Of a stretch of DNA of 64,000 nt, positions 2,035 to 60,699 are shown piece after piece. Every line of letters starts with the position of its first letter. Position 1 is the first letter of the stretch. The stretch comes from Octopus vulgaris. Taxonomy: Eukaryota. Below the pieces are notes generated by a model. It was not told the DNA's origin. It was given only the letters and a program-made list of their open reading frames with translations, and ran no database searches. The stretch is from contig OX597815.1 of assembly GCA_951406725.2 (NCBI GenBank), positions 95,852,001-95,916,000 on the forward strand. Reading direction: 5' to 3'. Made by a program: the position numbers and the translations under genes.

Positions 2035-3415
2035 TCACCATTTGCATAGCCTAATTAACCCATAGAAGTGAACTTAACAGAACAGGGTATGGTATAAAAT
2101 CGGTGACAAGAAAGTAAGTCATCTTTTTTATATGAATGATTTAAAACTCTGTGGCAAAGATGATGATGCGCTTCAAAGACTACTTAGAATTCTAAACGCT
2201 TTCATTGATGACATCGGGATGGGATTTGTTCTAGATAAATGTACCAAGGCCGCTTTCCAGAAACCTCACTTTCAGTGGTGTTGGATGTTGACACAGTCGT
2301 AAAAGAACTCGAGCAGGAGCAAACTTACAAATACCTCGGAATAGATAAGGGCTCTGGCATTCAGCATGCAAGCATGATAGAGAAGATCAGAAAGGAATGT
2401 TAGAGGAGAGTTCGGGGAGTCCTAAAATCTGAGTTAAATGCGCGTAACAAGGTTAGCTATAAACTCCTTAGAATTTCCATTTGTTATTTACAGTTTCGAT
2501 GTGTTGAACTGGAATATATCCAAAGTAAGGAAGATTGACAAGAAAATCCATAAGCTGACTTGAAATAAGATGCACCACACAATGGAAGACGCAGAACGTT
2601 TTTACCTAGCCAGAGCTCATGGAGGCCGAGGCTTGATCCAATTTGTAATCTCTTACAAAACCATCACAATTGGACTGGCAAAATATCTTGAAACATCTAA
2701 AGACTGGATCCTGAATCTCGTCGAAAATCATGATGGTTGGGACAAAACTTCTGCATGGCAAATATGTGGCCCTTAGCAAACAAGCTGAAGTAGAAAAAAA
2801 GCACACCCATCTCAACCTCCATGGCGTGATTACATGGTACATCTAATTTGCAAATCAGGATGTCGGTGTCAGAGAAATCAAGAGAAAAAAAGAAGGAGAA
2901 GGTACATAGATACACACACTCACACACACATATAATTATATATATATAGATATATGTGTGTGTGTGTGTCTGTCTGTGTGTGTGCGTGTGTGTGAGACTA
3001 TAGGTTCCTCAAGGAAGTGTACTGCGAACCATGGTGTATGTAGTGGCCCTCTCAGATATGCCCCTAGCCATATAGTTAGCTACCCTCACCTGTTAAACTG
3101 ATGATACAAATATTTCACAGCCGGTCAAGGAGACTCATGACATATTTAAACTACAAAACAGCCTGAATGCAACATACAGATGGGCTGATGAAAATCGCTC
3201 AGGGCGCCGATACATCAACGATATGATTGAAATAGTGGACCACTAATCTCTGGGTGAAGAGTTATAACACATGTAGAGTACAAATCAAGATAAGACAGAT
3301 TTGGCCAATACCTACATTGGATAATGTGTTGGCATTATGAAATCAAAACTGCTGACAAATGGTACAAGCACCACTCAGAAACTGTAAGTGATGAAGAAAA
3401 TGTCACGATTCTTGT
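2035..3415 (+). mobile_element. Decayed R4/Dong-like non-LTR retrotransposon fragment, interrupted at 2813-3195
   Basis: SHLF-YMND-LKL RT motif, ELNARNKV and RFYLARAHGGRGLIQ; after 3195 it resumes with GQYLHWIMCWHYEIK..WYKH..ENVTIL. Confidence 0.8.
2813..3195 (+). repeat. 383-bp direct repeat, copy 1 (partner 4533-4915)
   Basis: CAACCTCCATGGCGTG...GGGCTGATGAAAAT; about 2 mismatches seen between copies. Confidence 0.95.
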
Positions 3416-3767: not shown

Positions 3768-4148
3768 ATTACCTCCGCCTTTGCGAAGGCGGAGGTATTG
3801 TTTTTCAGTCGTGTTTGTTTGTTTGCTTCTTTGTCCGTGGGCAAGACAGCTAAAGTACCGCTGGATGAATTCGGATGAAACTTTCATGTATATTTGGCCT
3901 CGTGACTGGTACGAGTTGATTAGATTGTGAGATCGATCCAGTACCGGACAAGGATTCTGGATTATTTTCGTGCGTTTTTTTTTTACTAAATTTTTGAGAG
4001 GGGTCGAGTTCCTTTTTAGCATTCTCGTTTGTAAGAGCAGTTGAGTTTATTTCAGCTATTCTCATTTTAAAAATCATCTTTGGCCAATCGTTGAGTGGAC
4101 TTTAGTGTTGCATTGGCGGAGGTTTGTGCTCTCTGGGTGCTCTTGTTT
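3768..4148 (+). mobile_element. DINE-1/HINE-like non-autonomous Helentron, complete
   Basis: 5' hairpin TACCTCCGCCT-TTGCGA-AGGCGGAGGTA, (GTTT)n, 3' subterminal GGCGGAGG, small stem-loop and T-rich end; second copy at 5549. Confidence 0.7.
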
Positions 4149-4532: not shown

Positions 4533-4915
4533 CAACCTCCATGGCGTGATTACATGGTACATCTAATTTGCAAATCAGGATGTCGGTGCCAGAGAAATCA
4601 AGAGAAAAAAAGAAGGAGAAGGTACATAGATACACACACTCACACACACATATAATTATATATATATAGATATATGTGTGTGTGTGTGTCTGTCTGTGTG
4701 TGTGCGTGTGTGTGAGACTATAGGTTCCTCAAGGAAGTGTACTGCGAACCATGGTGTATGTAGTGGCCCTCTCAGATATGCCCCTAGCCATATAGTTAGC
4801 TACCCTCACCTGTTAAACTGATGATACAAATATTTCACAGCCGGTCAAGGAGACTCATGACATATTTAAACTACAAAACAGCCTGAATGCAACATACATA
4901 TGGGCTGATGAAAAT
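4533..4915 (+). repeat. 383-bp direct repeat, copy 2 (probable donor)
   Basis: Same sequence; here the embedded LINE fragment continues past the repeat end (MQFNVTKFQALQY). Confidence 0.95.
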
Positions 4916-5887: not shown

Positions 5888-8451
5888 AATCAGTTCGATG
5901 CGTGTACGCTTCATGTGAATACTGTCGCTTTTAAACTGTTATTTACGGAATTGTTGGATTTTGTTACCTGAAATTTCTGAAGCTGTTATTATCGGTTTTT
6001 AAAAATTTTCGGATCTTTTCAATTCTGAAGCCAGGACCACAGATCTTTCTACTTAACTAAATGTTCTGAAACTTCGTATGCTGATAGAGTCTAGCAAAAC
6101 AAGACACAGGTTGGAACTAGTTTATTTGAGAAAAATCTATTTTATGACTTTAATCGTAGATTAAAACTGCGAATTTTAACCAATCAGATTGTTTGTTTTC
6201 ATGTGTAAAACTTGACTGCATTCTATTAGTGTGACGTAGAAAGCGCTTTTGTGACGTACTAACGTTCGGAAAACTGTAAACAAACACAGAACGTAACGGC
6301 AGACGAAATACGGCTACGCATTTCGCCCGGCGTGCTAACGTTTCTGCCAGCTCTTTGCTTTTTTAATATTAAATTTCTTGCCTTTTGCACAAATAAATAC
6401 AATAAGTGAAATGAAACGCATTAGCTTAGAAACGAAATCTTGTTAGAAGCCTCGTCACTGAGATGCCACTTCTTAATAGCAAACGAAAGCAAGTACTAAC
6501 AGAATGGAAACATTTTCAATTTAATACATGTGGCTTATTAACTAGTTTTAAATATTGTTATTAGAAGGTGGCTGACTATAGGATCCTGGAAACATGAGTA
6601 CGTTAAATAATTAGAAGGAGATTTCACGGAGACATGCGGCTTGTTTACATTTAAGATGTTTAATACGTCACCAAATTGGTGGTCGAGACGGAGTAAATAA
6701 AATAAAGCCGAATGACGGAATATCATTGGTTAAAATTCTAATTATTAAACAACGTTAAACTTAGAAGTTACAATTCCGTTTTCATTCTGGTTTACAATTA
6801 AGTTTACTTTTGACACATTCTACCAGTATACGAAGTTTCAAATTGTTTGGTTCAGTAGGAAAAATTTGAAAAAACTGGCTTCAGAATTGAAAAGATCCAA
6901 ATTTTCTTCCCCATTTATAGGTGAAGTTGTGAACAATATTCTTATGGAATGTACACCAGTGCAAGCGGGCAGTTATGATGCGGTGACTGGCAAAAGCCTG
7001 TCAGCAGAGGTACTGCAAGTTAGAGAAGTTGAATTAAAGGAGAAAAGCTTTATAAAAAACGAAGATTTATTGAGAAAGGAGGCTGATAGCCTGACGTTGA
7101 CGCCTCCCAAGGAAATGATAAAAATTAAAAAGTGGAGTGTCTTATAGTTTCCTCTTCACTCACGAAGCGTACTTCCACTGTGCCGCTTTCCTGTGGTGTA
7201 GTACATCGTTAGATCTTTGACTTCTCTCAAGCATTCTTTTTGTTGCCAACGTGCGGCCAGAGTGAGGATTGGTAGAGTGGCAGCCACAGAGGAGGACACC
7301 AAAATACCGAAAATTACATGAACTACGAAGGTGAACCGCTGGGGATACGGACTGGAAATATCGGGTCACATCAGTTTACCAGAACTCCACAAAATGGCAG
7401 AGGAATTGGTGTTGCATGACGAGATGACGTTGAGAGTTGTAGCGGAAGGAAGACCACCTGTATGCTATCAATGTGGATTAAGGGGACACATGAAAGCTAC
7501 GTGTCCCCAGAAAAACGAACAGGAGGAGATAGAGAAAGAACATCAAGAAGAAGAGGGCTGAAACGTAGAGGAGCAAAAAATAGAAGAAGAAAATACAGTG
7601 GTGAAGAGGAAGAAAAATAATACGGACTCAACACCAAAAAGTCCTAGGAAGTAAAGAAAGAGAAGTGGAGAGGAGACGCAGAGTGGAAAGCAAGGAAAAG
7701 CGAACGAGCAGAGAAAAAATGAAAGGTCAACAAATGTGACAAAATCGAGGAGCAAACGCAGAGACCGTTACCATCAACTAGCAAGAAGGATAAAGTACAG
7801 AAGAAAAGGGTAAATGAAAGAGAGATGATAGGAGCAAAGAATGAGTGACATCTAGAGATAGGAATACCAGCAACAGTAGAAAAGATTGGTAAGGAAAACA
7901 GAGAGTAATACCAAAAGGAAAAATATAAGAACTATGATACAATACACAAAAAGTGTAGAGATAGAAAAAATATTGCGAAGATGAAAAAGGTAATTAGAAT
8001 TAAATTGCCACCCATAGAGTACAATGAAGGTATGAAAGCTGTTCTGCTGGAAAGAGAAAGATGAGAAGGGTTGGAGGAATTATTTGGGGAAAAGATAGAT
8101 GTGACAATGATACAGTTTCGTTTCGATGAGTCGCAGCCGGTGGCCGGTTGTGGCGTTCGAAGATTTATTGGATTATATGGTGTACATAGTGACTTTGTAT
8201 TAATTTGAAAAAAGAAAAAGGAAAAAAAGGAAAACAAATACAAGGCAGGATATTGAAGTGTTAGTAAAATTGTATTTAAAAACAGTAAAATGAAACTGTC
8301 TCCTTATGGGGAGCAGGTAAGTCATTCCATCCTCATTTTTCATTGTATCAATAATTTCATACGATATGTTTTTTTATGTACACCATTGTATTGTTGTGTC
8401 TGTTTTTTGTGTTGTCCCATCTTTATAGAGGCGTTGTGCCTAATAAAAGAA
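5888..8451 (+). mobile_element. ORF1/Gag-only retroelement copy A (decayed; MITE in 5' UTR)
   Basis: Starts AATCAGTT; ATG at 6944 (MECTPVQAGSYDAVT); VVAEGRPPVCYQCGLRGHMKATC knuckle at ~7463-7504; charged linker; AATAAA at 8442; no RT. Confidence 0.75.
6011..6898. mobile_element. MITE with 24-bp perfect TIRs and 8-bp TSD (Merlin-like)
   Basis: TIR GGATCTTTTCAATTCTGAAGCCAG / CTGGCTTCAGAATTGAAAAGATCC; TSD AAATTTTC on both sides. Confidence 0.9.
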
Positions 8452-10287
8452 ATCAGGACGTTGATGTTGCTTTGGTGGAGGTTTGTGTCACAGGCGGTTT
8501 GAGTTGTTTTTTGTCATGTAATTCTTCGTGTTAAATATTTGTTTCAGTGATTGTTACTGTTCGAATTGTTGCTAGTGTTATTTTGAATTGTTGTTTTTTC
8601 CCCATTGTGGGAAAAATAGAGAAAACGCCAGCAGGTGGCCATAGTTAAGCGGCTGCAACTCGTAAATGGATAGATGTGGAAACGCTGGAGTTATGGGAAA
8701 TAAAAGCTGAACCGCGAAAAATGGAGGAATGCGCGAAGTTGCTGGAAAGACGGGAATACACTGAAATTAACGCCGCCTGTGAAACTAACAACCGATGTAA
8801 TGGAAAGAACGGTGATATATAAAACAATGGAGATAGCAACTAGAAAATAGAAATAGCAACAATAGAGGCTTTTGAAGAATGTTTGAAGAATATAAAAAGA
8901 CTAACTACATTTATAACACGAGGGAGAAAGTACGGTACTGTGGTGGTGCGTTTTGCATCAGAAGAGGAAGAAATTAAGCCCTCCACAGAGGGAATAAGAT
9001 CGGAAGAATGGGTACTTTTGACATCGTGTGACCAGGGTGCAAGTTGGCAAAGTGCCCCCAGAGCTGAAAAAAGTATGGAAGATGACAGCCATAATGTATG
9101 ACATGAATGAGGAGGCTAAGATACTGAAGGCCACAAGAACCCAAAGAGTTAACTACAAGGGATATGGAATAGAGTTAACCGTTCAAGCGACAGTGGAAGA
9201 TATAAACAGAATTATCGTAGAGATAGTGCTGCCCGATGACGTAAGATTGAGAGTGATGGTGGAGGGCAGGCCGCCTATATGTTACACATGTGAGGAAAAG
9301 GGCCACATGAAAGGCGTGGTGCTCCCAGAGGGAACAACAGATAGATCAGACGGATAGGGAGGAGAACATGGATCAGATGGTAGGAGTTGAGATCAATGAG
9401 AAAGCAACAGAGGAGGGGTTCACGGTGGTTAAAAGATAAAAGAGAAGTAAGAGAGTGTGCTCACCGCTGGAGTAGCAGAAAAAGAAGGAAGCGATAAAAA
9501 AAGGAGGATACCAGAAGGAAGGAAGACGAAATGGTGATGGATAAAATAAGCGAAAAGGAACTTGAAGTGTTCAAGGGGGAGTTGCATAATGAAGAAACAT
9601 TGGTGAAGACAGCAGCTGTTCCAGTGGAGAAAGAATATCTAGAAACACAAGTGGAGAGACTGTTCAGAGCGGTGGAAGAAAAGAAGAAGCTACCAGGAGA
9701 GGCGCAGGAAAACAGTAATCTAATAAGAAAATGAAAATTTCGATGGAATTTTGTGACGTACGCAAAAAGCAAAGAAACTGAAAAGAAAGTATTAAAGTTT
9801 AAACATATTATAAGAGTAAAGTTCCCCACGGATGTGTAATCCGAGAATGTGAAGTCCATCGTGGTTGACAAGGACACCTACAACAGACTAAAAGACATGT
9901 GTGGAAAAGGGATTGACTAGCCAGGAGTGATGATGGAATTCGATGAATTGCCACCTGTAGTGGCGCTAAAGGATTTAGAACCTTTCATGAGATATTAAAA
10001 AGGAAAAAAAAATAGGTAAAATTGTTTTATTGAAGAAAGAAGAAAAAAGTAAAATTGTTTCATTAAAAAAAAAAGAGAGGATAAAACAAGATTAAGAAAA
10101 ACAATAAGATAATAGAACGATTGTAAATAGCTTATATAAACGTTCAAATGATAAGCCGGCCTTTTCATTTTTCATTTTTATATAACATCTCATTTTCATT
10201 CGTTCATGTTTTTGTCCCCACTGTGGTGTTGTGTCTGTGTTTGTAGTGTCCCCTCTGTGTTGTGGCCGTAATGCCAAAATAAAGAAA
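8452..10287 (+). mobile_element. ORF1/Gag-only retroelement copy B (decayed)
   Basis: Starts ATCAGG; TRGRKYGTVVVRF, RVQVGKVPPE, MVEGRPPICYTCEEKGHMK, HIIRVKFP; AATAAA at 10278. Confidence 0.75.
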
Positions 10288-10689
10288 CAGAGGTCTGTGC
10301 TCTCCGAGGGCTCTTGTTTATTACTATTTTCAGTTTAGAGAAGTAGAAAAAAAACGTTTTTACAACTTTTAGACTGGAAACCAACATTTGACAAAGTACA
10401 TTTCTATAGAGTACTGAAATATTCTCGGAAATGTTCTATTTTCACATATGCCAGTTGAATGTATTAACTAAATGATTTTAAAATGAGTTTTGAGTGGATT
10501 AATCCAACACAATATGTTGAGAGGCGATATACCCAGCAACCCAGCTGCAATTAATATTGATGCAAATATATATTTAGGTATATTTATATATTAGCTGTGT
10601 TGTGCAATTCGAACCCCTAATGATTACTTTATATTTTATACTTCAGTTTTTTTCGAGGAAAGCATTACTTATCACTTTTAAGATCATAA

Positions 10690-26494: not shown

Positions 26495-28213
26495 AAGAGA
26501 GGAAAAATCATACGGCAGAATGCTAAATTGAAAGTGAATTTTGATAAAGATGGGTGTATGAAAAATAAAAAAAAATAATAAATTAAACAGGTTTTCTTTG
26601 CAAGGCAAATTTTTAAGACTTGGAAGGGGAAAAATGTTTTTTTTTAAATTGAGGAAGGAGAAAAAGAAATGTATAATGCTTTTTTCAAAAAAAATAATAA
26701 TACATATATACAAAAATTAATAAATAAGTTTTGCAGTCTTTATGCTTTTAGAGTTCAATAATAGTCCTTGGAAAAACTTCTTTGGAGTATTAGGATGCAT
26801 GTGTTTTAAATGTAGTCTATATTTTGAAAAAGAAGGGTGATTGTTTGTCAATACAGGAAATTGCGTAGGAGTTACCCAGTTCCTATGAGTAAGGGGAGAC
26901 AATTCTCTGAATTTTATGCTCTTTCATTGGAATGGAATTTTTGTCAGACAGGATGCTTATATCAATTGTTTGTCAGATACAACGCTGGAAAAATGATTAT
27001 GGTCATCGTGGAGTTTGCATATTAAGACGCTTTTGGAATTTTTCAATAAAAAGATTTTCCTTGTTGATTCTTTCTTGTGTAGAGAATCTGTCTTTACATT
27101 GGCAGAAAGGGAATATGTGAAATTTGGGATTTTTATCTCTACGGCAAGAGACTATGTGGCTACTAAGTGGAATTTCATGGTATTGTGAGATATTTATTTG
27201 TTCTTTATGGACTGCTACTCTTCTGCGTAAAGGAAGGCTCGTTTGTCCAACATAATTGTGTTGGCAACCGGCGCATGTGAGAACGTAGATGAGGTTCTCG
27301 GAAGAGCAGAAGTTGGTCTCGATTTTAAACTTTGTTCCTTGTTTGAAAGTAAATTCAAAGCCTTCAAATAGGAAGGGGAAGGTACCACAGTTAGGGTGTG
27401 CACATTTTTTAACTGATCAGGGTGGATGTGGTGAGTGAAGTTTGGCATTTGTTAAGAGGTTTTTCAAAGATTTATGTTGCCTTTTGCATTGAAGGATTTT
27501 GTGTATTGATAATTTTATTCATTTTTGGGTCAGTGGATGTTTTTTATGATTGTGGTGTATGCTTCGATGTTTTATATGATTGTGGTGTATGCTTCGATGT
27601 TTTGTATGATTGTGGTGTATGCTTCGACGCTTTTGGCATTGTGGGTGGAAATGTATGGAAGTATTTTGAGGTTGGGTGTATTACTGTGTTGGGTAGTTTT
27701 CAGTGTATTATTGTCTAGTTCTTTGGCACGTTTAATTCCATAGTCTATAAGTGTGGAGGGATATTGGCGTTGTAATAGTCTTTTTTGAGGTATTGAAAGC
27801 GTATTTTTGGAGTTTTTGGATCCGAGACAATGGTGCATACCGTTTTAGCTAAGTTGAAAGGGATATTTATCTCTGTGATAACACGTCAGAAATTTGGACA
27901 CCTTTTCCACATCTACCCAATGGAAAACTGGAAAATATACCTAGATGTTTGTTTCATCATATTGAAAGAATCTTATGAAAAACTTCTGGAATTCAAAACC
28001 AAATTGAACAACATACATCCAAACATTCAATTCACTATGGAATTCAGCAAACATCATCTCCCTTTCCTTGATCTCCTTATTATAAAAACAAACACCTAAC
28101 AACCAAATCACAACAGACGTCTACCACAAAAATACAGACTCACAACAATACCTGCTCTTCAGTTTATGCCACCCAAAACACACCAAGATAAATATCCCTT
28201 TCAACTTAGCTAA
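26495..28213 (-). mobile_element. Penelope-like element remnant with 5' inversion
   Basis: Plus 27872-28213 encodes the PLE RT C-terminus (HPNIQFTMEF..LPFLDLLI, TDSQQYL..CHPKHTKINIPF). Minus 27871-26495 continues RQYPSTLIDYGIKRA toward a decayed endonuclease region. Confidence 0.8.
27540..27632. repeat. 30-bp tandem repeat x3 inside the PLE
   Basis: TATGATTGTGGTGTATGCTTCGA occurs three times at a 30-bp period. Confidence 0.9.
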
Positions 28214-31160: not shown

Positions 31161-33035
31161 CTAATAATATTAATAATAATAATAAGAATAAGAATAATGA
31201 CATCAATAATAAATAAATAGCATGGACCTGGTCGTCACAGAAACAAATGCCAATATGACCAAGCTAAATGATATAATATATACAGCAGCCGTTGTGGCCA
31301 TGGAAGAAGCTGGATACTCCATCAAAACCATCCAAACAGGAGTACTATCAGCCAAACCCTCCCTGTGGAGAAATAATATTCAGACAAAATAGAAAACAAG
31401 AGAAAGATCTGTCATTTCTTAATGAAACTTTTAGACGATCAGCAGTACTAAACAAGAAGAGGAGAAGAAAAATACTCTGTAAATACAAAATTACGGAACA
31501 AGGTATACCCGAGGTAAAAGAAGAGCTAAAGGAAGACATTCTCGCCAAAGCACAAAGAATCCACCGGTATTACAAACGCCAACGTTTCTTTGATCAAGAC
31601 AAACAGTTCAACTTCAACGCCAAAAGACTCGGCCAAGAACTTAACAAAAACAAAATAGAGATCAATGCAGCACCAACAGCAGAAGTGCAAAATTTTAGAA
31701 AGGAAATATGGTCGGCAAAGGAACAACCTCAAAAAAGTTGTACCGTAACAATGAATTCAGCACCTGAAGAACACTGGGCTCCTATAACAACTGAAGAGGT
31801 CACCCAGGCTCTGCAAAAACTAAGTAACTGGAAAACACCCGGTTACTATAAGGTCCTCAACTTTTGGTTAAAATACGTGACAGTATCACATAAAAAACTG
31901 GCTGAGAAATTTAATGAAATACTTGCAGTGACAATTCCTGAATGGCTCACGGAAGAGAAAACTATCCACATCCCCAAATACACTGATACAGAAAGCTACA
32001 ACAGCACAGAGCGATAACTGGTCTCCCTACAATTTACAAAGTCTTTACTGCAATAATATCGCAGAAAATGAGCAAACATCTGGAAGAAACCAACCTGTTT
32101 CCAAAAGAGCAGAAGGGATACTGCAAGGGCTCATATGGCTCTAAAGTTCAGTTAATGATTAGTAAAGACATAACTGAAGACAGCCGCAGAAAGAACGTCC
32201 TAAGTATGGTCAGGATCGATTACCGAAAGGCTCTTGATAGTATTACCAACACATGAATCATAAAAACACTAGCCATGAACAAGATAGCATCAGTAATCAG
32301 AAAATATATAACACATTCCACGAATAAATGGCAGACAGTGCTACAGCCCCAGACAAAGGAGGGATTCATAAAAATCAAAGCTATCCACATTTGAAGAGTA
32401 ATATTCCAGGGGGACATTCGTTCTCCACTACGTTTCTGCTTGGCACTGTCACCTTTATCTGATACGCTAAACAGAACTGGATGTGGATACAACTGCTACA
32501 ACAAAACCATCAGCCACCTCTTATATATGGATGATCTAAAACTGTATGCCACGAATGACAGAATGAGCTCGAAACATTGCTACAGAAAGAACATGGATTT
32601 ACTAAAACGAATAAACATGAAATTTGGCTTAGAAAAATGTGCCAAAGCAACCTTGAAAAGAGGAAACCTAGTTAAGAGCAGCAACATCACACTAGATGAA
32701 AACAAATGAAATAAGAGAATAAAACCACAGCCAGAGATACAAATAATTAGGTATCAAGGAACCATATACGATACAACACACACAAATGAAATAACAAAAA
32801 TACAAAAAAGAATACTATAGACGAGTTAGATTAATCACGAAAACAGAGCTCTATGCGAATATTAAGATAATACGTATCAACAGTCTAACTGTCCACTTAT
32901 AAGTTACAGCTACAATAGCCTCCACTGGACACTAAATGAACTAATCAAAATAGACAGGAAAACAAGAAAATTAATGACAGAAAACTAATGATTTAAGATG
33001 TACCATTCGAAATCTGACATAGAAAGATTAATATC

Positions 33036-33193
33036 TACATTATTTACATTTGACGGATATTTGTCCACATCGTGCTTGTTGTTAACACAACGTTTCGATT
33101 GATATACCCTTCAGCCTTTATCAGGTGTCTTGGGGAAATTTCGAACCTGGGTTCTCATTCCTAAGGTATCTTTCGATGTTATAATTGTTGTTA

Positions 33194-33290
<97 letters not shown>

Positions 33291-33540
33291 CATTATTATT
33301 ATATTATTATTCAGGTCACTGCCTGGAATCGAAATCGGAATCTTGGGGTTAGTAGCCCGAACTCTTGACTACTACGTCATATGGCCATGAACTTATTTCT
33401 TCAAGACACCTGATGAAGGCCGGAGGGTATATCAGCCGAAACGTTGTGTTAACAACAAGCAAGATGATGACAAATATCCGTGAAATGTAAATAACGTAAA
33501 TGATGTACATACTTCCTCATCTCTCAAATATAGAACTGTA
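33036..33540 (-). mobile_element. Non-autonomous element with tRNA-like head, (AAT)n and hammerhead, plus an inverted partial copy
   Basis: Arms 33036-33132 and 33402-33498 are inverted copies; tRNA-like segment at 33311-33386 on the minus strand. Confidence 0.75.
33405..33450 (+). ncRNA. Minimal type I hammerhead ribozyme motif
   Basis: GACAC-CTGATGA-a-GGCCG..CAGCC-GAAAC-GTT-GTGTT; stem III has no loop, as in dimer-dependent PLE hammerheads. Confidence 0.65.
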
Positions 33541-34657
33541 TCGAAGGGTTATATATACAACGAATGGAAGGTGGTAGAGTCCTTGTATAGCTAGAAAACG
33601 GTTACAGTATAACCACCATAGGACTGCAATAATACATACTTCAGAAGAAAGGGAAACTAATATAAATAGCCGCAATCATGAACAAAACAAAAACGGTTAT
33701 CTGTCTTTAAGGAAGCTGAAAAATACAAAAAAGAAGCCATAGTATCTAACAGCTATGAAGAAAAGAAGAAACAACAAAAGCTGTAAAACAAATAAAATCC
33801 AAACTAAAACTGGAACAGTAAAGGCTCATGCTAAAACGATGGCAAGAAAAGTTCCTTCATGGCAAATACTGGGTTAAATGAAACGCAAAAGAAATAATCA
33901 AAGCAAAATCCCAACAATGACTGAGAACCTCAGGATTAAAAGGAGAGATTGGAGGATTTTTAATTGCAGCACAAGACCAAAGCCTCCTCACCAGATATTA
34001 CCAAAAACATATAATGAAAAGAAACATAGGTAACTGCAGAATATGTGGAGGTGGACAAAAACAATAAACCATATTGTCTCTGGCAGTCCAGTCCTGGCTA
34101 AGAAGGAATATATTCACAGACACGCCAAAGTTGGGATCTATATGCACTAGAAGCTATGCCAAAACTACGGAATATCAACAGAATAGGTCAACGAAAATGA
34201 GAAAGCAACCATACTATGGGATATGTCAATACACACAGATAGAGTAATTAATGTCAATAGGCCTGATGTAGCTGTCAGAGATCATCAAGAAAAAATGCTT
34301 TCTAATCGATGTATCAATAACAACAGATGACAACGTTTTTCTAAAAGAAGTGTAGAAGCTATGAAAATACAAAGACCTGGAAATGAAGATAACTCGAATG
34401 TGGAGCCTAAAAACAGAAACGGTTCCTATCATAATAGGTATGATAAAAACTATTCAGACAAAAACATAACAAAAGCACCGGCACCAACAAGCATGTATAA
34501 CACACAGAAAACAATACTACTAGGCACCGCCCACATCCTACGTAAAACACTTTCAATAGATAACAATAAGTGTATCACAACAAACCACAGCACATATCCA
34601 AGGCACACAGAACTGCGCTCGGTAATACATTGAAAGCACGCGATGAAAATAAGACTA

Positions 34658-34763
<106 letters not shown>

Positions 34764-35142
34764 TCACCATTGCTGAAAACGCAACTTGAAAATGAGATGT
34801 GGTGAGGAAGGAAAAACTGGTCAAAATTAATTAGATGAATTAGAGGAATGCATTTGAAACCGTAACCCGCGTGAAGGACCTTGGAGTTTCCGCAGTTCTT
34901 GATACCCATATCGAGGCCAGAAATGCCTGACTACATTCTGGGACACTATTCTGTAGCGAAAGGGTGCTATTGTTCCTGAAACAAACAGAATCACAAGGTG
35001 ACAGTGTCTTTATGATTTTGTATACACTTTCAGGATTTACAATAAATCAATTTCACCGGAGAAGGTGTTTATAAGCCATTTAAGAAACATACCACAATAG
35101 ATTCACTTCAATATTTAAATTAAACTTGTCAAAATATTTTCG

Positions 35143-37020
35143 GTTTTTTATTACCTATTAACAGGCGTACATCGAAATCTTTAAGACAAATATAACGTGT
35201 ACTGAAAATACACAACGAGACACAATATAAAATCGGGGAACAAAAATAATAAAAATAGGCATTTGAAAAAAGAAGTAAAACCAAAAGAAAAGAATGAATT
35301 TTGAAAAAGATGATACAATGAGCCGGAATGCCCTCTCGACCCCGAAGTCGAGTTGTTACATTTAGACAGTTTTTTCTCTTCTTTTTCACAACACATTCTC
35401 GAACGATCTTTTCTCTCATTCCATCCCCCCCTCCGCCCTTCGTTTTTTCACAACATATTCTCGAAAAAAATTCCACAATTTTCTTCTGAACAGAAAAAGT
35501 TCACATTTTTTCCCACCAAATTATTTATTCCAAATTTATTACCTCTCTCTTGAAATTTTCCAGCATTGTATAGTCCACAACCAGCGGCCTTCTATTATAG
35601 TACACAGGCCCATCCATTCCAGCCATAAACTCTTTGTAATGTCTTCACAGTTCGTTGCTCGCTGACTCACTCACTATCACACACCTTTCCTCCTCTGGGA
35701 ACCTCCACTTAGGCAGTTTCACTCTCACCAAATTTTTCCACTTTGATATTTTCTTCTCTACCTATATTGGTTTCTTGTAAAGAATCAGGACTCCTTTATG
35801 CTCACTTTTAAACTCACTGGTCTTTGCACCTTCTCGTCTTTTCTCTTCATGTGTTTCAGACAGCTCTATATCATTTATGTCCGTCTTCTCTGCTTCTGCT
35901 GTCGCTTTCTGTAACACTTCCTTTGATTTTGCCTTCTTCCTTCTCTTGGGGCTGACGACTCCATCGCTCCCCTCGTTTGTCGCTTTTGTTTCTTTCTCTA
36001 TATCTTCCTTTTCTAGCTCACAGTTTTTATTTATTATCTTTTCTGTTTCTCTCTCCATCCTTCCTTGCGTCTCCATTCATCTCTCTTTCACTTCTTTCAC
36101 GTTCTGTATCCTCTCGTTCTGTTTATTTATATATTGCGGGCACTTCAATTTCATATGTCCCCTTTCATCGCAGATGTGGAAATTGGGTCCGCGACCCTCT
36201 ACTATTACATTCAGGGAATTTTCCCCTTCAATATCTGTTTGGTAGGGAAGCCTCTCTATATCTTCAAATGTGACGCAGAGCCACATCTCAACTCCGCTTT
36301 CCCACCAATTGAGCATGTCTGTTCTCCCAACCTCTGTGAGATCTGGCCTATCTTCGGTGGTCTTTATGATGGCTACTATCAACCATTCCGTCATCATATC
36401 AGGTGGCACCCTTGCTATCCTGACCCGGACGTGGCACCTTCCCTTATACGTAGGTAACAGCACCACCTTTTCCGATCTCAGGACTGCTGCGAAGTGTGAG
36501 GCCGCTTCTTCTTTTGTTGCAAACCTCACCTCCACCGTGCCATATCTCCTTCCTCTGCTTACGAATGTTTCCTTTTGCATTATGCTTTCTAGGCATCCCT
36601 CCACGTCTTCCTCTGATAATTTTTCAATTTTATTTGCGGTGACCGCTTGCGTGTAGTACACCAACGTTTTCTCAATCTACTCTTCAGTAAACTCTTGAGG
36701 AGAGACCACCTTAATTGCGCCATCCTCCTTCTTCACCAAGCTCAACCCATTCGTTATTTCTATTTTCCCAGTATGCACCTTTCTGGCTTCTAACGGTGTA
36801 GCTGCCTTTGCCGCAGCCGTTTTCGCGTAGCTTGCCATAACGCTACGCCACTCCTCACACCCAATGGGGAGAAAAAGGAACAAAAACAACAGCAGCAAGT
36901 AACAACACGCGCGAGACACTTCAACAATAGTATCAACAGGAAAAAACAACAACAGTTCTCACCTTCTTCGCACAAAAAATCACCTTCTTCTCATAAAAAT
37001 CACACTAATTCGCCAAAAAT
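35143..37020 (-). mobile_element. ORF1/Gag-only retroelement copy C, apparently full length with TSD
   Basis: TSD TTGTCAAAATATTTTCG / TTGCCAAAATACTTTCG; ends AATAAAAAA on the minus strand; single ORF. Confidence 0.8.
35525..36838 (-). pseudogene. ORF1/Gag-like CCHC nucleic-acid-binding protein (~437 codons, 4 in-frame stops, no frameshift)
   Basis: ORF-track pieces 36677-36952, 36077-36664 and 35762-36076 share one frame; MASYAKTAA, SRGRRYGTVEVRF, RVRIARVPP, VEGRGPNFHICDERGHMKLKCP, LVRVKLP. Confidence 0.8.
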
Positions 37021-38129
37021 TTGCCAAAATACTTTCGTCGCTTTGAGACTGCGACCAGTTCACTGACAAAATTCCGTGCTGCATGGAATTTTGTCATTGA
37101 ACAGATCACTGTCCCAAAGCGACGAAAATATTTTGACAAATTAAATTTAAATGTTCAAGTGAATCTAACGGCGTTTGTGTGTTTCTTAAATGGATTATAA
37201 ACACCTTCCACGCCGCAATTGTTTTCGTTCCAGCATACGATCTCAGATCAGGTCACTTGCTATGCAAGTACATCTCCGTAAATACAATAAATGTTATTGA
37301 GGAAATTCTTAAATAGTTGTAACGTTCTCCAAAAATATATGGATGGACGTGTTCAGGTTAAATATACGCACAAAGCAAGTAAGTAATATACGCTCATCTC
37401 GAACATTCATGTCAGTGGATTGATCATTTTTGTGATATCTGATTAGGAATAGATGAAAATATTTCCTAAGATGTAGCATCTAACATGCCACGTATTAAGT
37501 ACAACGAGGATAAACAAAATGTCCCTCTGACATTTCTGCATGCAATAAATCAGTAGCCTCAAATTTGTCTGTCATGCCGGACAGAATATAGCTTTTGAAA
37601 CGCCTTGTTTTTACTGTAACTTGCTAAATACAATCTAGAGGAATTTGACGCTACATGGGGAGAAACAGAATATATTTTGCTCAAGATATGGATAAGCTTT
37701 AGACTACGTCGATTGCACTGTAGAAGACACTATCACTGACACAAGCTAATCTGTTAGCGTTAGACACATACTTTTTCTCAATTTTTACGAAGGTATTGAA
37801 CACTACCCTTTTAGTGTCAGTGATTATAGGTTATGCAATCTCAAATGGATCGACCTAAATATTATGTTCCTTTAAATATTATGTTCCTTTAAACATATGT
37901 ACATTATATATATATATATATATATATACGTGTATATATATGTGTGTGTGTGTGTGTGTATGTATGTGTGTGTGAGAGTGGGCGTGTGTGTAATTATACA
38001 TTTGCAACTTATCATGGATGCTTTCTTAGAAAACTGAATACAAGACAACCGACTTATATTGGATACGAAGTTTACCTTTTGATATTAATACTTCTTGCTA
38101 ATAATTGATATATATATATATATATATAT

Positions 38130-43495: not shown

Positions 43496-43780
43496 TAATT
43501 TTTTTTTATAGCGTGCTTTCACTTCACTACCGAGCGCAGCTCTATGTGCATTTGGTATGTGCTGTGTTTTGTTGTGATGCTCTGATGGTTACTGTATTGA
43601 AAGTGTTTTGCGTAGGATGTGGGCAGTGCCCAGTAGTGCAATTTTCTGTATGTTATATGTGTTTGTAAATCCTGGTGTTTTTGTTATATATTTGTCTTAA
43701 TATTTTTTACCATGCCTAATGTACCTACTATGATAGGAATTGTTTCTGTTTTTAGATTCCAAATTCGAGTTACCTCTATT
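43493..43780 (-). mobile_element. R4/Dong-like LINE 3' fragment
   Basis: Reverse complement of ~43960-44250. Confidence 0.9.
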
Positions 43781-43818
43781 ATAATTATAATAATAATAAT
43801 TTTAATAATAATAATAAT

Positions 43819-44250
43819 AGAGAAATTAAGGCCAACAGACCAGATATAGTTGTCAGAGATCATGAAGAAAAAAAATGCTTTCTAATTGATGTGTCAATAC
43901 CGGCAGATGACAACGTGTCTCTAAAAGAAATGGAGAAACTCTCAAAATACAAAGACCTGGAAATAGAGGTAACTAGAATGTGGAACCTGAAAACAGAAAC
44001 AATTCCTATCATAGTAGGTGCATTAGGCATGATAAAAAAATATTCAGACAAATACATAACAAAAACACCAGGACTTACAAACACATATAACATACAGAAA
44101 ATTGCACTACTAGGCACTGCACACATCCTACGCAGAACACTTTCCATACAATAACCATCAGAGCATCACAACAAATCACATCACTTCCCAAGGCACACAG
44201 AGCTGCGCTCGGTAGTGAAGTGAAAGCACGCTATAAAAATAAAACTACTG
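43819..44250 (+). mobile_element. R4/Dong-like LINE 3' fragment with open RLE frame
   Basis: REIKANRPDIVVRDHEEKKCFLIDVSIPADD..EKLSKYKDL..LLGTAHILRRTLSIQ*; ends ACTACTG(AAT)n. Confidence 0.9.
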
Positions 44251-44319
44251 AATAATAATAATAATAATAATAATTATTATTAATAATGTTGTATTATTAT
44301 TATTATTATTGCATTTCTG

Positions 44320-44347
<28 letters not shown>

Positions 44348-44350
<3 letters not shown>

Positions 44351-46650
44351 TAGTTTTATTTTTATAGCGTGCTTTCACTTCACTACCGAGCGCAGCTCTT
44401 GACCTGTGCCTCTAGGTATGTGCTGTGATTTGTTGTGATGCTCTGATGGTTATTGTATGGAAAGTGTTCTGCGTTCTATGTTGGCATAGCTTCCAATGTA
44501 TGTAGGTTCCAACTCTGTCATGTCTGTGAATATATTCCTTCTTAGCCAGGACTGGGCAGCTAGAGATAATATGATTTATTGTTTCTTGTCCATCTCCCCA
44601 TATTCTGCAGTTACTTGTTATATTTCTTTTCATTACATTTTTTTGATAATTTCTGGTGTGGAGGCTTTGGTTTTGTGCTGCAATTAACAATCCCTCTGTC
44701 TCTGCTTTGAGTCCTGAGCTTCTCAACCATTGCTGGGATTTTTCTTTGTCTATTTCTTTTGCATTTAGTTTAATCCAGTATTTGCCATGAAGGGGCTTTT
44801 CTTGCCGTCGTTTGATCATGGTTCGTTGCTGTTCTAAGTTTTAGTTTGGATTTCATTTGTTTTATAGCTTTTGTTGTTTCTTCATCATCTTCTTCTTCTT
44901 CTTATTTATTAGGTGGTATGATTTCTTGTTTGTATTTGTCAGCTTCCTTAAATACTGAGAACAGTTTTTTGTTTTGCTCGTGTTTTGCCGCTATTTGTAT
45001 CAGGTTTCCTTCCTTCTGAAGTAGATATTTTTGCAGTCCTATAGTGGTTATTTTATAGTTTTTTCCAGCTGTATAAGGCCTCTACCACATTCTATACGTT
45101 GTATATATAGTCTTTCTATGTCAGATTTTGGGTGATGCATCCTAGATCCTGTCATTATTTTTCTTGTTTTCCTATCTATTTTGGTCAGTTCATTTAGTGT
45201 CCAGTTAAGGATATTGTAGCTGTAACTTATAACTGGGACAGCTAAAGTGTTAATACCTATTATCTTGTTTTAAGCATTGAGCTCTGTTTTTAGTATTGAT
45301 CTAACTCGTCTATAATATTCTTTTTTAATTTTCTCTTTCATTTGTGTGTGTTGTGTCTTATCTAGTTCATGGATTCCTATGTATGTGTAAGTTTGGCTTT
45401 GGTCTAATTCTTTTATTTCATTGGTTTTATCTAGTGTGATGTTGCTACTCTTAACTAGTTTTCCTCTTTTCATGGTTACTTTGGCGCATTTTTCTAATCC
45501 AAATTTCATATCTATTTCTTTAGTAAATCCATGAACTGTCTTTAATAGTGTTTCCAGATGTTTGTCATTTGCAGCGTATAGTTTTAGGTCATCCATATAT
45601 AAAAGGTGGCTGATCGTTTTGCCGTAACATTTATATCCACATCCAGTTCTATTTAGCATATCCGATAGAGGTGACAGTGCCAAGCAGAAAAGGAGTGGAG
45701 AGAGCGTGTCTCCCTGGAATATTCCTCTTCTAATGGGGATGGCTTTGGTTTTCATGAGTCCCTCTTTTGTTTGGAGCTGTAGCACTGTTTGCCATTTATT
45801 CATAGAGTGCTCTATGAATTTTATAAGGGTTGGTGCTACTTTGTTAATGGCTAGTGTTGCGAGGATCCATGTGTGGGGGATGCTATCAAACGTCTTTTTG
45901 TAGTCGATCCAGGCCATACTGAGGCCTTTCTTCTTTCTGTGGCTGTCTTCAGTTATGGCTTTATTAATCATTAGTTGATCTTTACAGCCATATGAATCTT
46001 TGCGGCATCCTTTCTGCTCTTCTGGAAACAGGTTGTTTTCGTCCAGGTGCTTGTTCAACCTTTGCGATATCACTGCAGTAAATGCCTTGAACATTGTAGG
46101 GAGACAGGTTATTTGTCTGTAGTTTTCTGGTTTTGCTGTCTCATTTAATTTGGGAATTAAGATGGTTTTCCCTTTCGTGAGCCATTCATGCATTGTCTCT
46201 GGCTCTGCTAGTATGCTGTTAAAGTTTTCAGCCAGCTTTTTGTGCATTCCTGTTAAATATTTCAACCAGAAGTTGGGGATCTTGTCATGCTCATGTGCCT
46301 TCCAGTTGCTTAGTCTTTGCAGTGCCTGGGTGACCTCTTCAGTTGTTATGGGGGTGCAAAGTTGCTCAGATGCTGAGTTTGTTGTTTTAATACTCCTTTT
46401 TGTTTTTGGTTGTTCGTTCGCCGACCATATTTCTCTCCAGAATTCTTCCACTTCTTCTGCCGTTGGTGCTGCAGTGATTTCTATTTTATTTTTGCCAAGT
46501 TCTTGGTAGAACTTTTTGGGGTTGGAGCCGAACTTTTTGTTTTGTTCAAAGAAGCGCTGGCGTTTCTCGTACCGTCGGATCCTTTGTGCTTTGGGAAGGA
46601 CATCTTGCTTCAGCTTTTCTTTTATCCCAAGTAAATCTTTTTCTGTGATG
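44348..46650 (-). mobile_element. Young R4/Dong-like LINE, 5'-truncated, RLE domain deleted
   Basis: 393-aa open RT frame; (AAT)n at both ends; jumps from HWKLCQH directly to the 3' terminus near 44476. Confidence 0.92.
45270..46451 (-). pseudogene. Non-LTR reverse transcriptase ORF fragment (R4/Dong-like)
   Basis: NYRQITCL, EQKG, WIDYKKTFDSIPH, RGIFQGDTLSPLLF, HLLYMDDLKL. Confidence 0.9.
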
Positions 46651-46728
<78 letters not shown>

Positions 46729-46929
46729 CTTTCACTTTTGCTTTGTATTTGTATTTGACTTATCTCACCCCGAGACCTGAAGAGACAAGTTAAACGTTCA
46801 AGTTAGTGTTATGCCTAGGATGTCATATATTTGGTTTTGCACATATTATGGTCCTATAAAATGTTTAAGATAAGAAAATTATAATTTTTTCTTTTAAATT
46901 TGAGATTACGTAGACAGTATTTTACGTAG

Positions 46930-60196: not shown

Positions 60197-60555
60197 GTAA
60201 AATAAATTGCAGGTTCCGCAATAGTTAATTTTGTAATCTACATAGGCTTAAAAGATAGGTTACTATCCCGTACATTGTAGCATTTCATACGTTGATGGTG
60301 AATTTATTTTGTATTAGTAGTTGGCACAAAACCATAGGTAAAATAGAAAGCATGCAAAGGGTTTCATATATTTTGTGGTAAAATAAATTGCAGGTTCCGC
60401 AATAGTTAATTTTGTAATCTACATAGGCTTAAAAGATAGATTACTATCCCGTACATTGCAGCATTTCCTACGTTGATGGTGAATTTACATTGTATTAGTA
60501 GTTGGCACAAAATCATAGGTAAAATAGAAAGCATGCAAAGGGTTTCATATATTTT
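60197..60555. repeat. 181-bp tandem duplication (2 copies)
   Basis: GTAAAATAAATTGCAGG...GGGTTTCATATATTTT at 60197 and 60378, few mismatches. Confidence 0.95.
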
Positions 60556-60699
60556 AAGGTACATTTGTTCATAGATTGAGGTTAAGTTTAGTTCGAAAGT
60601 TGAGATGGCGATATTGTGGCTTAAAAATGACATGGATTACCGTTTTATGAGTCTGTGTGGCTTGTATGTAAGAGACGCGTGCCTATATAATGTTTATAT

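Follow-up and report, generated by a model that had tools for sequence, protein, structure and literature searches.

ORF1-only retroelements of octopus: a family probably copied by an L1/Tx1-type LINE, with preferred sites in repeats and head-to-tail arrays

Closest described systems

ORF1-only derivatives of LINEs have been described mainly from mammals, as HAL1 (the primary paper is reportedly Bao and Jurka 2010), and from Drosophila telomeres. HAL1 is a non-autonomous LINE derivative that encodes ORF1p alone, and several independent origins have been reported for it (PMC5753468). HeT-A and the other ORF1-only lineages of Drosophila telomeres need the ORF2 of another family and form mixed head-to-tail arrays (PMC13534243). 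Passages of that paper also state that these elements give rise to further ORF1-only families, and they report ORF2 loss as absent from non-telomeric Jockey elements. Xenopus Tx1, crocodilian Tx1-Mar and SINEU-3 prefer a site in a non-autonomous DNA transposon; in these Tx1 systems a non-autonomous partner uses the same target, and tandem SINEU-3 insertions sandwich a TSD (PMC4494074). In Drosophila rDNA, new copies of R1 enter the TSD that lies 5' of a copy already in place, which is the accepted route to R1 arrays, and a table note places the tandem R1A copies of one species all upstream of R1B (PMC2718515).

The octopus family described here works like HAL1 and like the Drosophila telomeric elements and is a strict member of neither. 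It likewise consists of non-autonomous LINE derivatives that encode ORF1p alone, but mammalian HAL1 has a type II ORF1 (Transposase_22; PMC5203782), whereas the octopus protein is predicted to be of type I, with RRM and CCHC domains. It also differs from HAL1 in being invertebrate and site-specific, in having no long poly(A), and in its head-to-tail arrays and very young copies. The Drosophila elements are of the Jockey clade and telomeric, whereas the octopus arrays are mostly internal and, unlike those of the HeT-A type, have TSD copies between the units and DNA-transposon-like repeats as sites. The preferred site in a DNA-transposon-like repeat, the partner with the same target and the TSD-sandwiching tandem insertions are found in octopus as in the Tx1 systems. 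R1, with which the octopus family has insertion at the 5' end of an existing copy in common, is unlike it autonomous and targets 28S rDNA.

To judge from the sequences, these elements are ORF1-only derivatives of an L1/Tx1-type LINE that are likely copied in trans by an intact LINE and have preferred sites in repeats, a reading to which we give a probability of roughly 0.87. It is a variation on the HAL1 theme, HAL1-like in an invertebrate lineage of putative Tx1 type, with insertion possibly coupled to the helper. The case is young, under selection and non-telomeric, it comes from a mollusc, and both an intact helper and a defined target are at hand; this makes it possible to test why elements that are not autonomous retain ORF1 and how they evade cis preference. 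Its ordered arrays are also a record of insertion order. The ORFs of the family are annotated as uncharacterised Octopus genes, and masking them is advisable. We found no description of the family in the literature, where passages of PMC13282606 and PMC8967140 mention L1-Tx1 as a class alone; Repbase, Dfam and the consensus library of PMC13282606 may already list it.

Copy C and the family to which it belongs

The window is the whole 64,000-nucleotide stretch of Octopus vulgaris DNA that was analysed. The initial annotation had counted three divergent copies in it, and all three (A, B and C) are real; A and B, however, are broken, lie head-to-tail on the plus strand, and have protein pieces of 29-48% identity. 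The sequence TCCCCATT, which was said to precede the start codon in each of them, is indeed found upstream of ORF1 in all three. The features are:

35143..37020, minus strand: ORF1-only retroelement, copy C, the whole unit between the TSDs (relatives end at the same 3' position)
36839..37020, minus strand: GT-rich 5' UTR with TCCCCATT and a 21-bp near-tandem repeat (sequence)
35525..36838, minus strand: ORF1, 437 codons, four in-frame stops, no frameshift (translated frame)
36191..36700, minus strand: two RRM-like domains (approx. aa 47-216), placed by alignment to an intact relative (AF2 pLDDT 91.5, tandem-RRM matches)
36140..36181, minus strand: degenerate CCHC knuckle, first Cys = Phe (intact in relatives, PF00098 in 4)
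35528..35803, minus strand: C-terminal domain, predicted alpha/beta sandwich (common to the copy B type and O. bimaculoides proteins)
35335..35352, minus strand: conserved hairpin in the 3' UTR (covariation weak, with a single compensatory pair)
35143..35155, minus strand: 3' terminus GGTAATAAAAAAC, the family end motif (sequence; other family 3' ends)
35126..35142, no strand: TSD, 3' copy (same site at 7/19 other 3' ends)
37021..37037, no strand: TSD, 5' copy, 15/17 identical (sequence)
35061..35142, no strand: palindromic MITE-like target repeat, outer portion of the arm that is interrupted (palindrome; 35-mer matches)
37021..37208, no strand: palindromic MITE-like target repeat, centre and second arm (palindrome; 35-mer matches)
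6800..8452, plus strand: copy A, an ORF1-only element that is broken and has an inversion inside it (approximate 5' limit)
8453..8485, plus strand: target-derived spacer between A and B (same junction at loci L193 and L211)
8486..10287, plus strand: copy B, broken ORF1-only element of another subfamily (sequence)
10288..10316, plus strand: right half of the target repeat of the B subfamily (sequence)

Copy C runs from 37020 to 35143. The proposed ~1.88-kb unit with a ~17-bp TSD measures 1,878 bp, with a TSD of 17 bp that has two mismatches. ORF1 starts with the ATG at 36838 and ends with the TAA at 35527-35525; its length and its motifs (MASYA, RGRRYGTVEVRF, RVRIARVPP and EGRGP) are as first described, but the frame is not open. 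Since four in-frame stops interrupt it (codons starting at 36679, 36079, 35764 and 35647) and the first Cys of the knuckle reads Phe, copy C is dead. The AATAAA that had been noted is present at 35147-35152, inside the last 10 nt of the unit, and is followed by a short A run alone, with no long poly(A) tail. Covariation as high as that of the 3' UTR hairpin was obtained in 34 of 500 shuffles. The TSD sits within a palindromic repeat formed by both flanks, called MITE-like from its shape alone, and a 35-mer of this repeat has 2,566 exact matches genome-wide.

The nearest relatives of copy C differ from it at 107 of 1,356 and 140 of 1,464 aligned bases. At 0.0036 substitutions per site per million years, the rate given in PMC13282606, and with the distance divided between the two copies, these differences would correspond to roughly 11-14 million years.

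Copy C is one member of a large, old octopus family of ORF1-only retroelements, whose copies have TSDs of 12-17 bp. At least 150 protein matches were found in its own 2.8-Gb genome (G000; 12,409 candidates), and a piece of copy B used as the query gave at least 150 further matches there. The initial annotation had spoken of an old, diversified cephalopod lineage. Size and age bear this out, but the relatives with names come from three Octopus species (O. vulgaris, O. sinensis and O. bimaculoides, among 20 of the at least 150 representatives listed) and are not cephalopod-wide; an Argonauta protein is a more distant named relative.

Probable helper LINE, target repeats and the order of arrays

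An intact LINE with an ORF1 and an APE-RT ORF2 (PF03372 and PF00078) is present at locus L044, and the ~45 nt at its 3' end are nearly identical to the end of the ORF1-only element directly behind it. Many LINE copies have an open ORF2 of 1,132 codons, which, where intact, encodes a C-terminal cysteine-rich motif (CPRC...HAIVHC). A 22-nt end motif common to the ORF1-only and LINE classes has 388 exact matches, as against 0 for the control. Because the 3' ~45 nt and the target are common to this LINE and the young subfamilies, it is likely the helper of the young ORF1-only members; its APE and RT domains, its cysteine-rich motif and its type I ORF1 would make it an L1/Tx1-type LINE. Its ends lie on one target site in 46 cases and on other family members in 8 (junction types counted). 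By the measure used in PMC4494074, where a preference means more than 20% of flanks in one repeat, this is a target preference.

The idea of a LINE that shares the 3' end therefore holds for the young subfamilies, for which an autonomous one exists, but not for copy C's own subfamily, where no LINE with the exact end was found (0/8 pattern matches). The same is true of the copy B subfamily (0/23 ends, one of them with an unrelated ORF2 piece inserted upstream). Hence the helper of these two subfamilies is assumed; the terminus of the copy C subfamily is a diverged version of the young shared end. The 2026 annotation of O. vulgaris gives 13 recently active L1-Tx1 families with 421 insertions, and the helper LINE may be among them (PMC13282606). 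We found no mention of ORF1-only elements, their targets or arrays in part of its text, and one supplement has no match to ORF1, HAL1 or non-autonomous.

Another subfamily of the autonomous LINE, 87% alike in the endonuclease, forms tandem runs of its own with a spacing of ~5.3 kb and many open ORF2s:

G000:C27:32965857-32987752: tandem run
G000:C30:10437077-10448348: tandem run
G000:C22:14225903-14242275: tandem run

Neither target specificity nor arrays had been mentioned in the initial annotation, and both were found here. Each ORF1-only subfamily has one preferred site in a DNA-transposon-like repeat. In the copy C subfamily, 8 of 20 distinct 3' ends lie at one MITE site (7/19 without copy C), and in two cases both arms of one palindrome are occupied. 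In the copy B subfamily, 12 of 23 ends lie at one site and two more nearby in the same repeat, of which an empty copy is present in the window at 4115. The young subfamilies and the LINE have a common target site in a 1.2-kb repeat with a 3' hairpin, a CTAG end of the CTRR kind and a GTCY-like microsatellite near the 5' end (by eye, three copies), which may be a non-autonomous element of the Helitron/Helentron type. An Rfam scan of this target gave low-complexity matches alone, all below the gathering scores. The repeat carries a captured, frameshifted ORF1 fragment of the same superfamily (L165, L169 and L175; G000:C1), and the young insertion site lies inside that fragment.

The largest arrays contain up to 22 ORF1-only units of mixed subfamilies, followed by a LINE. 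It is in these arrays, in their strong helper-first polarity and in a partner that is protein-coding and under selection that the octopus system differs from the Tx1 systems and SINEU-3. Array positions are mostly internal (for example, G000:C7 at 100.1 of 128.6 Mb and C1 at 64.2 of 225.7 Mb), and among the arrays listed a few, on C19 and C32, are near contig ends. Within one array, copies are 0-76 bases apart over 1.7 kb. There are also identical blocks in some arrays, which tandem duplication may have produced. The head-to-tail joint is present in contigs of all four public runs, which bear three organism labels; joints that recur in independent contigs rule out the arrays as assembly artefacts.

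Every array junction examined contains a piece of the target, and always the local variant, also where the variant is rare or the site is off-target. With rows paired by hand and two further junctions that are altered at this position left out, the junction and the local target variant were concordant in 15 of 15 arrays (C-variant 4/4, A-variant 11/11; p 7e-4). The observations fit arrays that would grow by repeated insertion into the 5' target copy, the route described for R1 and SINEU-3. Co-transposition of ORF1-only elements and LINE from a master locus is rejected for most arrays, whose internal junctions have the local target variant, off-target as well. [quoted passage not shown] Examples are:

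G000:C17:56764486-56770190: altered 5' target copies
G000:C1:64242811-64257125: altered 5' target copies
G000:C9:94209214-94214617: altered 5' target copies

The units of an array follow a polarity. In genome-wide counts of exact patterns, which are lower bounds and omit 5'-truncated LINEs and the LINE subfamily with its own tandem runs, the 5' end of the LINE is preceded by an ORF1-only element 41 times, by a LINE 6 times and by the left half of the target 13 times; before the right half of the target there is an ORF1-only element 8 times and a LINE 46 times (54 filled right junctions, as against 852 empty targets). The odds ratio for this polarity is 39, the junctions not all being independent. 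The youngest ORF1-only subfamily is preceded by an ORF1-only element 57 times, by the left half of the target 28 times and by a LINE 0 times, and a LINE stands before another ORF1-only subfamily twice. The pattern tags were correct in all of the loci checked (71/71, 23/23 and 16/16).

We would picture the cycle as follows. The ORF1-only RNA would be translated, and the ORF1p, with its two predicted RRMs and CCHC knuckle, would coat its own RNA in cis. The ORF2p of the helper would nick the target and prime on the shared 3' end, and each insertion would regenerate a target copy on its 5' side, to be taken by the next one. In the young family, the ORF1-only RNA might also ride with the LINE particle, and ORF2p fresh from a LINE insertion might re-prime at the regenerated site 5' of the new LINE. 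This is the most speculative step, and we offer it tentatively, at about one chance in three; it would explain the retention of ORF1. Serial insertion is given this much weight because open LINE-promoter chromatin alone would raise LINE-before-LINE junctions too, and that rise is unclear (6/60 before a LINE vs 46/906 at the target right half, p 0.13). It is unlikely, though a little less than a third of our belief goes to it, that the full proposal holds, in which long-lived octopus ORF1-only parasites would keep their RNA-binding protein to board the helper particle, with the passengers inserted serially, helper first. If true, a helper-first serial mode would build ordered internal arrays and would answer why half-LINEs keep ORF1.

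The same family and the same helper could also produce the arrays with no coupling, each element inserting independently and the site 5' of a full-length LINE being more accessible, through open promoter chromatin, or a better substrate. This alternative concerns the mechanism of the polarity alone, is compatible with the main classification, and comes close to an even bet. Re-insertion into the 5' TSD is accepted for R1 (PMC2718515) and for tandem SINEU-3 (PMC4494074), altered 5' target copies are inherited in several arrays, which implies rounds finished one by one, and the old subfamilies insert without an adjoining LINE. On the other hand, the same enzyme should favour the site for LINE RNA too, where the shares just given show no clear difference; it is instead the ORF1-only share that is raised, at 41/60 before a LINE vs 8/906 at the target right half. 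The copies of both classes are young, at 3-37 and 0-76 differences in 1.7 kb, so that age order alone is insufficient. Whatever its weight in the young family, coupling to an adjacent LINE is not general, since copy C and most copies of the B type sit directly on the target with no LINE behind them and the downstream LINE is missing at 6 of 14 young loci, the first ones examined, which had been chosen by eye.

That the units are not retrotransposed at all, but multiply as passengers of the Helitron-like or MITE-like repeats or through tandem amplification of the satellite type, is very improbable. The units do lie inside such repeats, the young target has its 3' hairpin, CTAG end and captured ORF1 fragment, and identical array blocks occur. 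Against this, most targets are empty (852 vs 54); the subfamilies, sites, truncation points and local TSD variants differ; in several arrays a copy has its nearest relative on a different contig; and the target repeat is not part of the array unit.

ORF1 and the independence of the family

The initial annotation had used the label Gag, which does not apply: the protein of the family is a LINE type I ORF1, with two predicted RRMs and a CCHC knuckle, and not a capsid-type Gag. An AF2 model of the ORF1 of an intact natural relative (pLDDT 91.5) has two RRM-like domains followed by the knuckle; it gave 15 Foldseek matches at E<=0.001, with tandem-RRM proteins on top, and a best VIA match with Z 8.9, rmsd 2.6 and 81 aligned. 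Type I ORF1 has been linked to the Tx1 clade in non-mammalian animals (PMC5203782). In Pfam, PF00098 was found in four intact relatives and zf-CCHC in 20 of 57 aligned members, with no Transposase_22 in those 57 and no domain in the copy C peptide. A PDB sequence search with ORF1 matched zinc knuckles alone, and no phage match was found. The C-terminal domain had no Foldseek match at E<=0.001, and its best VIA match (Z 5.5) would indicate only a common alpha/beta arrangement.

ORF1 is under purifying selection between the ORF1-only subfamilies. By pairwise Nei-Gojobori estimates on the ORF1 core, in which 8 of 18 pairs were saturated, dN/dS was 0.10-0.15 in five pairs drawn from intact ORF1-only subfamilies; in three pairs with decayed ORF1-only copies it was 0.22-0.28, and in two pairs of LINE ORF1s 0.07 and 0.15. 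In the youngest subfamily, 4 of 49 copies are open for at least 450 codons, and an early frameshift is common to its copies. This frameshift is probably a homopolymer error of the assembly, because contigs of all four public runs depart from the assembly by a single base within this homopolymer.

A quick tree of 52 ORF1 rows has a main ORF1-only clade of 30 rows (SH-aLRT 93), made up of 27 ORF1-only elements, one unclassified row and two database proteins, one of them from O. bimaculoides. Copy C groups with the O. bimaculoides protein (support 98). None of the LINE ORF1s, sampled from three LINE lineages, falls inside this clade, and three ORF1-only rows fall outside it. A single origin of the ORF1-only elements is not rejected (p-AU 0.24, with 11 long or redundant rows dropped). 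Another ORF1-only family (L146:2-1387 and L164:1684-3027), whose 3' UTR is short and whose C-terminus differs, lies in the same arrays and outside the main clade; it is possibly a second origin.

These results leave very little room for the view that the elements are dead LINEs, cut short at the 3' end or deleted internally, that lead no independent existence. The ORF1 is homologous to that of APE-RT LINEs, with motifs in common and 27-31% identity, copy C is dead, and two or three ORF1-only rows are near LINE rows in the tree. However, the elements form a clade of their own, in which synonymous divergence is saturated and dN/dS is low, their 3' UTR and C-terminal domain are unlike those of the LINE, and their ends are reproducible and have TSDs. 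The claim that they are ORF1-only rather than truncated LINEs is upheld by the 60 best loci (the best 30 for the copy C query and the best 30 for the copy B piece, self matches included). None of the 60 has a same-strand endonuclease within 1.5 kb after ORF1, and 46 reach the family 3' UTR 0.7-1.4 kb past the match; the other 14, without a detected family 3' UTR, either have an interruption or escaped the set of tails used. The ORF2 pieces near these loci are one 5'-truncated ORF2 inserted downstream and two on the other strand.

An origin from a host RRM-CCHC gene (ZCCHC3-like), whether as its processed pseudogenes, which the initial annotation had named as a refuting outcome, or as a multigene family, is scarcely credible: a language-model search did rank a ZCCHC3 RNA-binding-domain cluster ninth (score 0.90) and annotated Octopus proteins exist, but the elements have TSDs, site-specific insertion, a terminus shared with a LINE and no long poly(A), they fall into many divergent subfamilies with their own UTRs, the full relatives closest to them are ORF1s that lie upstream of APE-RT ORFs, and no intron-containing single-copy parent is among the at least 150 plus at least 150 matches listed.

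Some further repeats deserve mention. Loci L085, L095 and L110 have the same terminal motif followed by GATA, two of them being ~30 bp long with TSDs of 16-17 bp, pointing to a sister family with another target. An A-type element followed by a B-type element is found at three loci (window 8453-8485, L193:900-960 and L211:980-1040); either this order recurs or the pair moved together. In the window, 31277-34028 and 43552-46802 are inverted fragments of another LINE, ~80% alike, with an RT, (ATT)n runs and a restriction-like endonuclease motif, presumably Dong/R4-like by its motifs. GIY-YIG-like and RT-like frames at window 27003-27416 (minus strand) and L216:2-1144 (minus strand) we take, again by motifs, to be Penelope-like. 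A perfect 300-bp direct repeat (2813-3112 and 4533-4832, 1,720 bp apart) is either a recent duplication or an assembly duplication, and at 60197-60558 a 181-bp unit is present in two tandem copies that are 96% identical.
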